From: Longimicrobiales bacterium
GTDB taxonomy: Bacteria; Gemmatimonadota; Gemmatimonadetes; Longimicrobiales; Gaopeijiaceae
Assembly (NCBI GenBank): GCA_041690395.1
Contig: JAWLHJ010000004.1
Coordinates: 561,365-625,364 of the forward strand
Reading direction: 5' to 3'
DNA length: 64,000 bases
The notes beneath the pieces were generated by a model. The model was given only the letters and a program-made list of their open reading frames with translations, searched no databases and was not told the DNA's origin. Below are positions 3,759 to 28,047 of the stretch, piece by piece. The position numbers were made by a program, and so were the translations under genes. The number at the start of each line of letters is the position of its first letter. Position 1 is the first letter of the stretch.

Positions 3759-3840
3759 GCCGGACAAGATAAGGCCGGATGCCACCGGGCAGTTACCGCG
3801 GTAACCGGCACAGGTGACGGGCTCGGCCGACCGTGACGAC

Positions 3841-3876
3841 GAAACCGGCCCACCGGGAGCGATCCCGATGAGCCGG
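3841..3876 (-). terminator. Intrinsic terminator downstream of the FN3 lipoprotein gene
   Basis: Minus strand ccggctcatcggga-tcgc-tcccggtgggccgg-tttc: 14-bp stem with two G.U pairs and a short U tail. Confidence 0.6.
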
Positions 3877-3949
3877 CCATGGCGGGCTGGACGCCGCGCG
3901 TATCTCGCGTCCGGTCGGCGCCCAACCCCGATGCGTCCGTGTTCGTCGG

Positions 3950-24971: not shown

Positions 24972-25407
24972 GATGGCGTCGTCGTTCCCCGTCCGTTGGC
25001 TCGGCGGCGTCCCCCCACGGGACCCCGCGGATCGCAAGCCCTTAAGGTAGCCCGGATCGGAGGGAAGGGAGAGGGGGCGCGCATCCGTCCCATCCAGACA
25101 TTGACAGGATTTCCAGGGTCGCGGTGGGGGTGACCGAGCACCCTCGCCTCGAGCCGCCCTCTCGCGCTCGGATGTCGCCCCAGGAGCGACATCGCGGCCC
25201 TCCGGTTCCGGAGTTGATCTCCACAGGCGCGTTCGTGCCGCGTCGGCCGACTCAGAAGGCCGCCAAACCGGCCTTTATATTGGAAGCAAGTCACTGCGCG
25301 CCCACGACTTGAGTGGGATGGGACCCAGGTTTCGCGGCCAATCTGGCGATCGCCCGGACGCTACTTCGAGGATGGCCGCTACTACGAGGAGGAGGAGGAT
25401 GGGGAGG

Positions 25408-26850
25408 ATGATGACGACGATGGCGAGTGACGCGCGCCTGACCCGCCTCGACCGGGTCGCCGAGCTATACGCCGGAATCACCGCTGCCACGCGGGTCTTC
25501 CTGGCGGCACTCGCCGAGTGCGACCGGCTCGGTGACTGGTCCGAGGAAGGGTTCACGTCATGCGCCGAGTGGCTCAGTTGGCGCCTCGGGATCACCCGGA
25601 ACACCGCCAACGAGAAGGTCCGCGTCGCCCATGCCCTCGAGCGGCTACCCGAGATCGCCGGCGCCATGGAGCGGGGCGAGCTCTCGTTCAGCAAGGTCCG
25701 GGCGCTCACGCGCGTGGCCACGCCCGACAACGAGCGCGAGCTGCTGCCGTATGCCCTCTCGGTGTCGGCGGCCGGGCTCGAGCGCTTCGTCCGGAGCTGG
25801 CGGGAGATCGATGGGGAGGATCCCTCCGCTCGGGAACGGAGACTCCATGCGCGCCGGACATTCTCGGTGTTTCCGGGCGAGGACGGGCTGTACGTCCTTC
25901 GCGGTCGGCTCACCCCGGAGGTCGCCGCCGTGCTGATGCGGGCGGTCGAAGCGGCCAGCGACGCGTTGTACCGCGAGGCCCGCCCAGTCCGCGAGCTCGA
26001 CCCGAACGCCCGGTTCGACCTCGACGACGAAGCAGACCGCCGCGCCGCCGCGCAGCGCCGTGCCGACGCGCTCGGGCTGATCGCGGAGCGCGCGCTGGCG
26101 GCCGGATTCGGGGACGACCGCGCGCCGGTGAGCGGGTCCAGGGCCGAGCGGTATCAGGTCGTGCTGCATGTGGGGGCGGACGGCGACGCGAAGCCCCGCG
26201 GCGCGGCGCCCCTCGACGACGGCGCGGCGCCCCTCGACCGCGGCGCGATCCTCGACGACGGCACGTCAGTTACCGCGGTAACTGCTCGGAGGCTCGCCTG
26301 TGACGCCGCACGGGTCGACGTGACACACGCCGCGGACGGCCAGGTCCTGGACGTCGGGCGCCGCACCCGCACGGTCCCCCCTTCGATCCGACGCGCACTC
26401 GAGGCCCGTGATGGCGGATGCCGCTTCCCCGGTTGCGGATCGCGCTTCACCGACGCCCATCACGTCGTGCACTGGGCGGAGGGCGGAGAAACGAGTCTGG
26501 GGAACCTCGTTCTACTCTGTCGAAGGCATCATCGGAGCGTGCACGAGGGAGGTGTCACGGTCGCCATCGACCGTCACCAGCGCATCGTGTTCTTCACTCC
26601 GGATGGGCGGGCGATGGCGGCGTGCGGAACGATGAAGGCCCGCGCGAGGGGGACGGCAGAAGCGAGGGGGATGGCAGAAGTGAGGGGGAAGGCAGAAGCG
26701 GGCGGGACGGCAGAGGCGAGAGTGGCCGCAGGGACGGGAGCGACCGGAGGGGACTGGCACACCTCACGCCCCTACAAGAGCGACGCGCTCGTTCCCTGGC
26801 GACTCGAGGCAGCCGCGTGGGAGGCCCTCGACCCGCCGGACGCGGCGTAA
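25408..26850 (+). CDS. DUF222 (13E12-repeat family) domain plus HNH endonuclease
   Basis: SCAEWLSWRLG, GELSFSKVRALTRVA, RRLACDA, LDVGRRTR, RDGGCRFPGC..DAHHVVHWAEGGET.LGNLVLLCRRHHRSVHEGG. Start uncertain (ATGs at 25399-25420). Lies opposite to its nucleotide-sugar neighbours. Confidence 0.9.
   Translation: MMTTMASDARLTRLDRVAELYAGITAATRVFLAALAECDRLGDWSEEGFTSCAEWLSWRLGITRNTANEKVRVAHALERLPEIAGAMERGELSFSKVRALTRVATPDNERELLPYALSVSAAGLERFVRSWREIDGEDPSARERRLHARRTFSVFPGEDGLYVLRGRLTPEVAAVLMRAVEAASDALYREARPVRELDPNARFDLDDEADRRAAAQRRADALGLIAERALAAGFGDDRAPVSGSRAERYQVVLHVGADGDAKPRGAAPLDDGAAPLDRGAILDDGTSVTAVTARRLACDAARVDVTHAADGQVLDVGRRTRTVPPSIRRALEARDGGCRFPGCGSRFTDAHHVVHWAEGGETSLGNLVLLCRRHHRSVHEGGVTVAIDRHQRIVFFTPDGRAMAACGTMKARARGTAEARGMAEVRGKAEAGGTAEARVAAGTGATGGDWHTSRPYKSDALVPWRLEAAAWEALDPPDAA
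26267..26284. repeat. Perfect 18-bp palindrome CAGTTACCGCGGTAACTG inside the HNH gene; related copy at 3781-3805
   Basis: Read directly from the sequence at both loci. Confidence 0.95.
26644..26733 (+). repeat. Degenerate 18-bp tandem repeat, about 5 copies (gcgagggggacggcagaa), in the HNH gene 3' end
   Basis: Units at 26644, 26662, 26680, 26698, 26716. Confidence 0.9.
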
Positions 26851-26852
26851 GC

Positions 26853-26932
26853 CGGGCGTAGCCGCGGCGCGAGCGGGGCGTGGCCGCGGCGCGAACGGGG
26901 CGTGGCCGCAGCGCGAACGGGGCGCAGTCGCG
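26853..26932 (+). repeat. 22-bp tandem repeat, about 3.5 copies (ggggcgtggccgcggcgcgaac), directly after the HNH stop
   Basis: Units at 26853, 26875, 26897 and a partial unit at 26919. Confidence 0.9.
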
Positions 26933-26934
26933 CC

Positions 26935-28047
26935 CTATCCGTAGAACGCCCGCACCACCTCGCACACCCTCGCGACCCGCTCCTCCCCGAGCTCGGGGAA
27001 GATCGGCAGCGAGAGCACCTCCCCGCACAACGTCTCGGTGACGGGCAGGTCCCCGGCCCGGCCGCCGAGCGACGCGAAACACTCCTGGAGGTGGAGCGGC
27101 TCGGGATAGTAGACGCCACTGCCGACCCCGCGGTCCGTCAGGTACCGGCGCAGCTCGTCGCGCCGGCGCACGCGGATGGTGAATTGGTTGTAGACATGCC
27201 TGGAGCCCGGCCCGCCGTCCCCCGGGAGCAGGACCTCCGCCACGTCCTCCAGCCCCTCCCGATACAGGTCCGCGTTCCGCGCCCGCGCCTCAGCCCACCC
27301 GTCCAGATGCCGCAGCTTGACCCGCAGCACGGCGGCCTGGAGCGCGTCGAGCCGCGAGTTGGTGCCCACCAACTCGTGATGGTACATCTGCCGGCCCCCG
27401 TGCACGCGGAGCTTGCCGACCCGCTCGGCCAGAGCGGCGTCGTTCGTCGTGACCAGCCCGCCATCCCCGAAGCCCCCGAGGTTCTTCGTCGGGAAGAAGC
27501 TGAACGCCCCCGCGTCGCCGACCGAGCCCGCCGCGCCCTCGGGCCCGCTGGCGCCGATCGCCTGGGCCGCGTCCTCGAGCACGAACACCCCGCGCGTCGT
27601 CGCCAACTCCATGATGTCACCCATGGGCGCCGTCCGCCCGAACAGATGCACGGGCACGACCGCCACCGTCCGCTCCGACCAGACCGCCTCGAGCGTGGCC
27701 GCGCTCACGTTGAACGTCTCCGGATCGACGTCGCAGAAGACCGGCCGCAGCCCCGCGTTCCACACCGCGCCCGCGGTCGCGAAGAAGGTGAACGACGGCA
27801 CGATCACCTCCGAGCCCGGCTCCGCGTCGATCGCCTGAAGGGGGAGAAGCAGCGCATCCGTCCCGGACGCCACCCCGACAGCGTGACGCACCCCGATGTA
27901 CCGCGCGATCTCTTCCTCGAACGCCTCCACCTCCGGACCGAGCACGAAGCCCTGACTCTCGACGACGCGCGCGACGGCGCGATCGAGCTCTTCACGAATC
28001 GATGCGTACTGAGCCTTCAAGTCGAGGAGCGGGATCTGCTGCGACAC
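26935..28047 (-). CDS. DegT/DnrJ/EryC1/StrS PLP-dependent sugar aminotransferase
   Basis: IPLLDLKAQY, SGTDAL, VHLFG, EDAAQAIG, SFFPTKNLGGFGDGG, NSRLDALQAA; GTG start at 28047. Confidence 0.93.
   Translation of the reverse strand: MSQQIPLLDLKAQYASIREELDRAVARVVESQGFVLGPEVEAFEEEIARYIGVRHAVGVASGTDALLLPLQAIDAEPGSEVIVPSFTFFATAGAVWNAGLRPVFCDVDPETFNVSAATLEAVWSERTVAVVPVHLFGRTAPMGDIMELATTRGVFVLEDAAQAIGASGPEGAAGSVGDAGAFSFFPTKNLGGFGDGGLVTTNDAALAERVGKLRVHGGRQMYHHELVGTNSRLDALQAAVLRVKLRHLDGWAEARARNADLYREGLEDVAEVLLPGDGGPGSRHVYNQFTIRVRRRDELRRYLTDRGVGSGVYYPEPLHLQECFASLGGRAGDLPVTETLCGEVLSLPIFPELGEERVARVCEVVRAFYG

Follow-up and report, generated by a model that had tools for sequence, protein, structure and literature searches.

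The stretch of DNA analysed here, hereafter the window, comprises 64,000 nucleotides from a Longimicrobiales bacterium and contains a gene of the widespread DUF222-HNH family that carries a perfect 18-bp palindrome within its coding sequence. This palindrome was found to be a DNA-level element that is conserved in and around DUF222-HNH genes, and across homologues it changes in step with two residues of a predicted helix, which argues that the enzyme likely recognises its own site by means of a readable code. Taken together, the comparisons described below lead us to favour, as the probable explanation, a double-stranded dyad to which the protein itself would bind through a predicted helix-turn-helix domain of the ParB type. 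The gene is part of an inserted cassette, and nicks made close to bound sites are probably the means by which parts of this cassette are spread.

The palindrome, CAGTTACCGCGGTAACTG, occupies positions 26267-26284 and is identical to its own reverse complement. Its 14-bp core (26269-26282) is read in frame and codes for V284-T288 (VTAVT) immediately ahead of ARRLACDA, in agreement with the original prediction, which had placed a palindrome coding for VTAVT before RRLACDA. Homologous loci were drawn from a clade made of Gemmatimonadota, Gammaproteobacteria and Acidobacteriota, and consisted of the best 80 of 345 confirmed loci from named genomes together with 30 loci from the order of the window. 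A site could be mapped in 108 of them, and perfect palindromes were present in 58 of these 108 as nine distinct variants, with dyad positions 1, 3, 4 and 6 varying among loci. The original prediction held that homologues often read VSAET at this place, encoded by the palindromic GTTTCCGCGGAAAC, and this variant was found at 13 of the 80 loci. Where the peptide is VSAET, 45 of 50 loci carry a perfect palindrome, as against 6.7% expected from codon usage, and these palindromes make use of rare codons (GTT 7%, TCA 5% and GCT 6.5%). At dyad positions 6 and 9, 25 of the 50 VSAET loci have C-G and 20 have A-T, a double change that is synonymous. Selection at the nucleotide level and palindrome-preserving covariation, both of which had been put forward for this gene, are thus borne out. 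In a hairpin these positions would fall in a predicted CGCG loop, whose outer bases were found to covary as pairs (C-G in 44 and A-T in 29 of 77), and the symmetry is therefore that of a double-stranded dyad.

Perfect copies were also found away from the canonical position. Their localisation was counted in 79 of the 80 named loci, one being without a site region, and 42 extra copies were located between -1500 and +700 of the site with none in the 524 kb outside. They occur in all frames and outside any frame, and some lie upstream of the gene in several loci. Copies that share a locus are identical in 27 of 29 pairs (0.34 by chance). The canonical palindrome has been lost in 29 of the 79 loci, of which 15 still have a perfect copy at another place within the gene or close to it.

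The encoded protein was modelled with AlphaFold over residues 1-403 and 1-137, with predicted local distance difference test values of 83 and 95, respectively. Residues are numbered from the ATG at 25420, the start codon not being fixed and the frame being open from 25309. In the structure model, residues 19-132 (25474..25815, plus strand) are predicted to form a DNA-binding domain of the ParB/Noc/KorB type. The best match of the N-terminal model was the ParB DNA-binding domain in complex with parS (6s6h; Z 8.2, root-mean-square deviation 3.1, 101 aligned residues), which the full model matched with Z 8.6 and a deviation of 2.5 over 99 residues. A fold search against 48,161 chains returned the DNA-binding domains of ParB, Spo0J and KorB as its top four matches, and ranks 1-11 in Foldseek were taken by ParB, Noc and Spo0J. 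The Pfam domain HTH_ParB (PF17762) was matched with E=0.0077, short of its cut-off, and it matches 8 of 35 family members at E<=1. Searches with Pfam gave no match to ParBc, the CTPase domain, and 18 residues precede the matched domain, while an atlas search with residues 135-320 yielded unnamed matches alone (0.90-0.91). The predicted recognition helix, helix 60-73 of the model (25597..25638, plus strand), contains N61 (codon 25600-25602) and N64 (codon 25609-25611), the two positions that change with the palindrome and that sit 660 nt from it. When the helix of the host ParB was aligned by eye, R60, N61, N64, R68 and R94 fell approximately on ParB R173, S174, A177, R181 and R204.

The relation between helix and site was analysed in 451 distinct proteins that were pooled and assigned to a site class from the peptide, which was possible for 274 of them; classes are named here by base and dyad position, so that C3 denotes a C at position 3. 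The peptide classes FSAEN, FTAEN and LSAES were checked on the DNA, where FSAEN and LSAES proved to be perfect palindromes. Of 18 proteins with C1 sites, 17 have Q or G at residue 64, as against none of 241 with G1 sites, all 15 T1 sites go with M/V61 and S64, and all 32 A4 sites go with N61. On a tree built without the helix and site columns, a scan of 359 alignment columns gave residue 64 the first rank and residue 61 the second, whether the outer pair was taken alone or the two pairs together, and these ranks recurred in 30 of 30 reconstructions. Four joint changes were counted for these residues against 0.11 expected (Poisson p 5.6e-6), the best of 35 control traits reaching 8.5e-4. Based on these data we use a working code in which R64, or R60 with N64, goes with G1, Q/G/A64 with C1, and M/V61 plus S64 with T1, while N61 permits A4, the variant of the window. 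One protein nested in the T1 clade, P0065, combines a G1 site with N61/N64, either a joint reversion or a chimera. All three H61 genes whose DNA was examined (L096, L165 and L042) have a C at dyad position 3, and two further loci have C3 without H61. The suggestion that the palindrome is a recognition site of the encoded protein is thus well supported by the predicted ParB-type domain and by the joint change of helix and site.

Free copies of the site were then counted across the 136 genomes common to both searches. The median was 8 sites in the 58 genomes with a full gene match versus 2 in the 78 without (reversed-pattern controls, 2 and 1), a difference whose significance is overstated because the genomes counted span kin. 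Five of 10 site-rich, gene-negative genomes were searched again and all five hold pieces of the gene, while five near-complete genomes without any gene match have 0-2 sites, which is the background. The number of free sites per genome ranges from 0 to 36, and in 7 of the 8 genomes that were checked their variant agrees with the helix of the gene present there, as had been anticipated for dispersed copies. The rule for Q64 comes from other proteins and postdates the retrieval of these genomes, and that for N61 predates it. At least three C1 sites are present in 3 of 261 genomes, each of which holds a Q64 or A64 gene (Q64, Q64 and A64), and two of the three genomes with at least two T1 sites hold M61/S64 genes. 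The A4 variant of the window accounts for 16 of 18 sites in genome G106 and abounds in genome G187, both of which have N61 genes and a decayed canonical peptide. Since the variant follows the helix despite this decay, the signal in the DNA is separated from protein-protein contact. At L206 and L210 of G106 the canonical site has been lost, but a loop of the gene contains an in-frame insertion made up of the palindrome and 20 nt of flank. Free copies in this genome share this one-sided flank with the copy in the loop, with a best identity of 12.7/20 against 9.9 +/- 0.4, which argues for copying rather than for the independent gain of operators.

No conserved tag was found in the flanks of the sites. 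In the single-contig genome G106 all 18 sites are confined to the origin-proximal half, none being more than about 1.05 Mb from parS; an origin-proximal bias was nevertheless rejected as a general rule, G187 and G004 being without it. A large repeat protein of G187 (L249-L254; G187:C1:997212-1006137) contains seven in-frame copies of the palindrome of the window. At L127, L131 and L135, free sites that belong to different variants are grouped 50-550 bp from one another, away from any DUF222 gene, as if the same spots had been hit repeatedly.

In the window itself a second copy is located at 3790..3805, where the 14-bp core (3792-3805) is accompanied by one 2-bp arm; no strand is assigned to either copy. 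The spacer that holds this free copy (3759-3949) separates two genes of the same direction, and the copy precedes by 33 nt the start (3758) of the minus-strand gene ftcd, which codes for a glutamate formimidoyltransferase and was named by TIGR02024. The two copies are the only matches to the core with at most two mismatches in the window, where 0.03 are expected and none of 100 shuffles reached two, and they are also the only exact copies in the 4.33-Mb genome. With at most one mismatch the genome holds four matches, one of which (C2:678766) falls within an unrelated coding region. It had been noted that positions 26269-26293 match the minus strand of 3781-3805 beyond the palindrome, and the identity at 23 of 25 positions is real. 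However, the first 2 of the 11 bases outside the core are part of the 18-bp dyad, and the remaining 9 agree at 7 (P ~0.013, best of four arm pairings). The flank bases beyond the 18-mer are absent from the syntenic copy of the relative G344, and an extension of the site past the 18-mer was rejected on these two grounds. The ftcd-upstream site itself is present in G344 at the same position as a perfect 18-mer and is absent in G130, G276 and G310, that is, it is found in 2 of the 5 genomes of the genus, and its flanks are unalignable. A genome-wide palindrome family in the host was likewise rejected, as this genome holds the two exact copies and a different variant in a gene remnant. The enrichment outside HNH genes that the original prediction had envisaged takes the form of extra copies tied to the gene across loci and genomes, and not of a family dispersed through the host. 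A minisatellite made of 21-nt units (26196-26240) directly precedes the palindrome in the gene.

The gene of 476 aa (25420..26850, plus strand) codes for DUF222 (PF02720, E=1.6e-28) followed by HNH (PF01844, E=1.4e-7), both above the Pfam cut-offs, and this order is the architecture of the DUF222-HNH (13E12) family. The HNH nuclease domain (26419..26547, plus strand) folds like the HNH of IscB and McrA in the model. Its catalytic and zinc-binding residues are intact (C334, C339, H347, H348, N362, C367, H370, H371 and H375), and each of them is conserved in 446-451 of 451 homologues. The gene is part of a cassette of about 1.9 kb (25057..26934, plus strand) between ugd and a gene for a DegT-family aminotransferase. 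In G276 ugd adjoins degT with no gene between them, and homology to this empty site stops at 25056 and restarts at 26935, bracketing the cassette, which on this comparison is an insertion. A syntenic cassette is carried at the same place by G130 and G310, and G419 has an unrelated gene there. Features of an insertion sequence (terminal inverted repeats, a target duplication, or a DDE, HuH or serine transposase) were not seen, the sole empty site being too diverged to give the ends at base level. Across 401 genomes, DUF222-HNH matches were found in 133, with one to six per genome at varied places. The host genome contains one intact gene and one remnant, L297 (G000:C2:30900-31700), which is what an internal deletion has left of a second cassette: the left-end motif, some 140 nt, a palindrome (GTTTCAGCTGAAAC) and an HNH portion without its core.

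This left-end motif, GTCCCATCCAGACAT (25087..25101, plus strand), was aligned in 15 upstream regions of the clade and is present with at most three mismatches in 33 of 99 such regions. The genome contains two exact copies, the other of which lies 35 nt before a gene for an error-prone DNA polymerase, and the 15-mer is a candidate DNA-damage operator of the lineage. Such a role would be in line with the LexA control reported for mycobacterial 13E12 genes (PMC3381160). In the host genome the motif was not found upstream of the two lexA genes or of recA. A related motif precedes an open reading frame of 158 aa that looks like Vsr; outside the window, the positions noted for these motifs are G000:C2:26429 and G000:C5:379395. 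A -10-like hexamer, TATATT (25276..25281, plus strand), is aligned across the clade, and a consensus scan for a sigma-70 promoter or a terminator revealed neither a full promoter nor a terminator. An inverted repeat with 8-bp arms and a 7-nt spacer (25172-25194) lies upstream of the gene and is not conserved in relatives. Two further minisatellites were noted, of five 18-nt units in the 3' part of the gene (26616-26731) and of three 22-nt units past the stop (26838-26925).

Based on these observations, we propose that the protein binds the dyad, probably as a dimer, in which base 1 would be read by residue 64 (or 60) and bases 3-4 by residue 61, a step that we hold to be likely. Binding to its own gene may also limit expression or hold the nuclease at home, with expression induced by DNA damage via the left-end motif; this is put forward with some reserve. 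More tentatively still, nicks made by the HNH domain beside bound sites might start repair-copying, which would move the cassette, leave deleted remnants and seed free sites such as that before ftcd.

A number of results weigh against this proposal. As regards the code, 177 of the 451 proteins were set aside since their canonical site was decayed or unclassifiable, and 29 of 61 N61 proteins keep T4. The outer-pair result rests on six site changes, of which four are joint. Tests on independent pairs are singly not significant (3:0, 2:0, ~4:0 and 3:0; p 0.125-0.5), none pointing the opposite way, and for the inner pair alone residue 61 ranks 7th in the pooled and 34th in the strict analysis. As for the free sites, G349 has two T1 sites and the only gene found in it is N61/T64, and 13 of 16 C1-positive genomes have single sites that could be due to chance. 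G187 has seven C4 sites with no matching gene among the four examined, seven of its 15 A4 sites fall in the one large repeat protein, and its shared flanks are not above chance (9.6 vs 9.0 +/- 0.4). The fold scores are moderate (Z 8.2-8.6), Foldseek returned nothing at E<=0.001, the profiles of 11 host-type ParB domains were matched only weakly (E=0.12), and a sequence search of the PDB returned HNH relatives alone and no ParB. Lastly, no palindrome, terminal repeat or target duplication was seen at the ends of the cassette in the window, and the three genomes of the genus that carry the cassette have it at a single locus, which means that its movement is not fast.

The main rival explanation is that of a KorB-like regulator or nucleoid organiser alone, for which sites in the gene would be autoregulatory operators, free sites would be a small regulon or drift, and the nuclease would act elsewhere, for instance in DNA damage or defence, with no spreading. 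Such a regulator would account for the KorB DNA-binding domain among the top folds, for the copies upstream of the gene in several loci and for the retention of the ftcd site in 2 of 5 genomes of the genus though its flanks are unalignable; the left-end motif shared with the error-prone polymerase gene and the binding of LexA to 13E12 genes of M. tuberculosis (PMC3381160) would also fit. Against this, the free sites adjoin unrelated genes and number anywhere from 0 to 36 per genome, sites are found in frame within other genes and at new places in the gene itself, and the flank shared in G106 is one-sided. We consider a pure regulator unlikely, though it deserves to be kept in view, and prefer binding together with spreading.

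A second alternative concerns partition systems. ParB-parS, Noc-NBS (Noc-binding site) and KorB-OB share the predicted fold, and the DUF222 dyad has the same 14-bp length and arm pattern. It has been reported that parS (TGTTTCAC-GTGAAACA) and NBS are 14-bp dyads with differences at positions 1 and 6, and that four residues suffice for the switch between them (PMC7383237). DUF222 resembles this case in that a few residues would switch specificity along with changes at dyad positions 1 and 6. DUF222-HNH proteins differ from ParB in having no CTPase domain, no parA, a fusion to HNH and sites inside their own coding sequence; the centre of their dyad is CGCG or AGCT instead of the ACGT of parS, and the switching residues 61 and 64 are not the equivalents of ParB 173, 179, 184 and 201. 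On the second alternative, the palindromes would mimic parS and attract the ParB of the host, with loading of SMC (structural maintenance of chromosomes) complexes, and the gene would do no more than hitch-hike on the partition system. The host does have a ParB, and the arms of the commonest variant (GTTTC/GAAAC) equal those of parS. However, parS of the host consists of two canonical copies with the centre ACGT on another contig, between mnmG and parA-parB (G000:C1:255698 and 255784, contig C1), while the neighbours of the cassette are ugd and degT, not parA. The variant of the window departs from parS at 6 of 14 positions, and variants change at position 1, which is read by R173 in ParB (PMC7383237). 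They also track the DUF222 helix, the host ParB helices being nearly invariant, and show no general origin bias, which together make this alternative highly improbable.

The original prediction had drawn an analogy with the RAYT (TnpA-REP) enzymes and the repetitive extragenic palindromic (REP) or REPIN sequences, and a nuclease that reads the palindrome as a single-stranded hairpin was weighed as a third alternative. A resident nuclease gene with co-evolving cognate palindromes beside it and dispersed is indeed a feature of both (PMC8266576), cognate variants are lineage-specific and copies extragenic as for REPs, some REPs are perfect palindromes (PMC8266576), and the 18-mer can fold as a hairpin (-3.8 kcal/mol). 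Nevertheless, neither copy folds better in its context than shuffles (z -0.8 and 0.3), and the outer bases of the would-be CGCG loop covary as pairs. The enzyme combines HNH with a helix-turn-helix and has no HuH (Y1) transposase domain, and the covarying residues fall in a helix predicted to read double strands. The sites themselves are duplex dyads and not tagged single-stranded hairpins, they lie in coding sequence and their copies (0-36) are far fewer. With no HuH enzyme and no hairpin signature, RAYT/REP is only an analogy, and the mechanism borrowed from it is not supported, a hairpin-reading nuclease being very doubtful here. Least probable of all is that the palindrome has no function as DNA, a protein constraint on VxAxT combined with template-switch mutations perfecting quasi-palindromes and a helix co-evolving with the peptide, because the overlap of the canonical site with a conserved protein segment and its loss in 29 of 79 loci are outweighed by synonymous covariation with rare codons, by copies in other frames and outside any frame, and by variants that follow the helix where the canonical peptide has decayed (G106, G148 and G187).

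Free-standing HNH homing endonucleases are likewise encoded by inserted genes, and in them an HNH nickase is joined to a domain that binds a specific DNA sequence. The target of a homing gene is present in the empty allele, which is cut, and is destroyed by the insertion, so that the gene itself is without it. In the present case the site is found within the DUF222 gene, and the empty allele of G276 has no palindrome. The closest relatives by architecture are the 13E12 (REP13E12) repeats of mycobacteria, which share DUF222 (PF02720) plus HNH and are multicopy. One account treats them as insertion elements controlled by LexA (PMC3381160) and another as breakpoints of inversions (PMC13157036), and the available text of these two accounts gives no DNA-binding fold, palindrome or mechanism, the string 'palindrom' occurring 0 times in that of PMC13157036. 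A 2025 survey of ParB fusions covers CTPase-HNH fusions, and DUF222 and 13E12 are absent from its main text (PMC12704722). In the open literature covered, we found no description of the pairing of DUF222-HNH with a palindrome or of the helix-base code. The gene is thus a member of the DUF222-HNH family that combines a predicted ParB/Noc/KorB-like mode of recognition with a RAYT/REP-like genomic pattern, and is a member of neither group.

DUF222 is a very large family, for which 11,134 cluster representatives were counted at E<=1e-30. The damage-induced 13E12 repeats belong to it, and no substrate of DUF222 was described in the literature found. With its predicted ParB-type domain, its cognate site and its two-residue code, the family lends itself directly to testing. 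In its boldest form, which we offer as speculation and judge rather unlikely as a whole, the proposal would make DUF222-HNH cassettes mobile elements of a new, self-addressed class. Their reader, derived from ParB and fused to an HNH nickase, would recognise a parS-like dyad in its own gene, the address would be reprogrammed by two helix residues such that paralogues in one cell become orthogonal, and this address would be copied through the genome after DNA damage. Such cassettes would be the equivalent of RAYT/REP for duplex DNA, and would amount to a natural collection of dyad-targeting nucleases that can be programmed. More generally, if the site and the code hold, many natural specificity switches would be added to the ParB/Noc pair that is used for studying the evolution of DNA-binding specificity, and DUF222-HNH genes would be a candidate source for the short palindromes that are dispersed between and inside genes.

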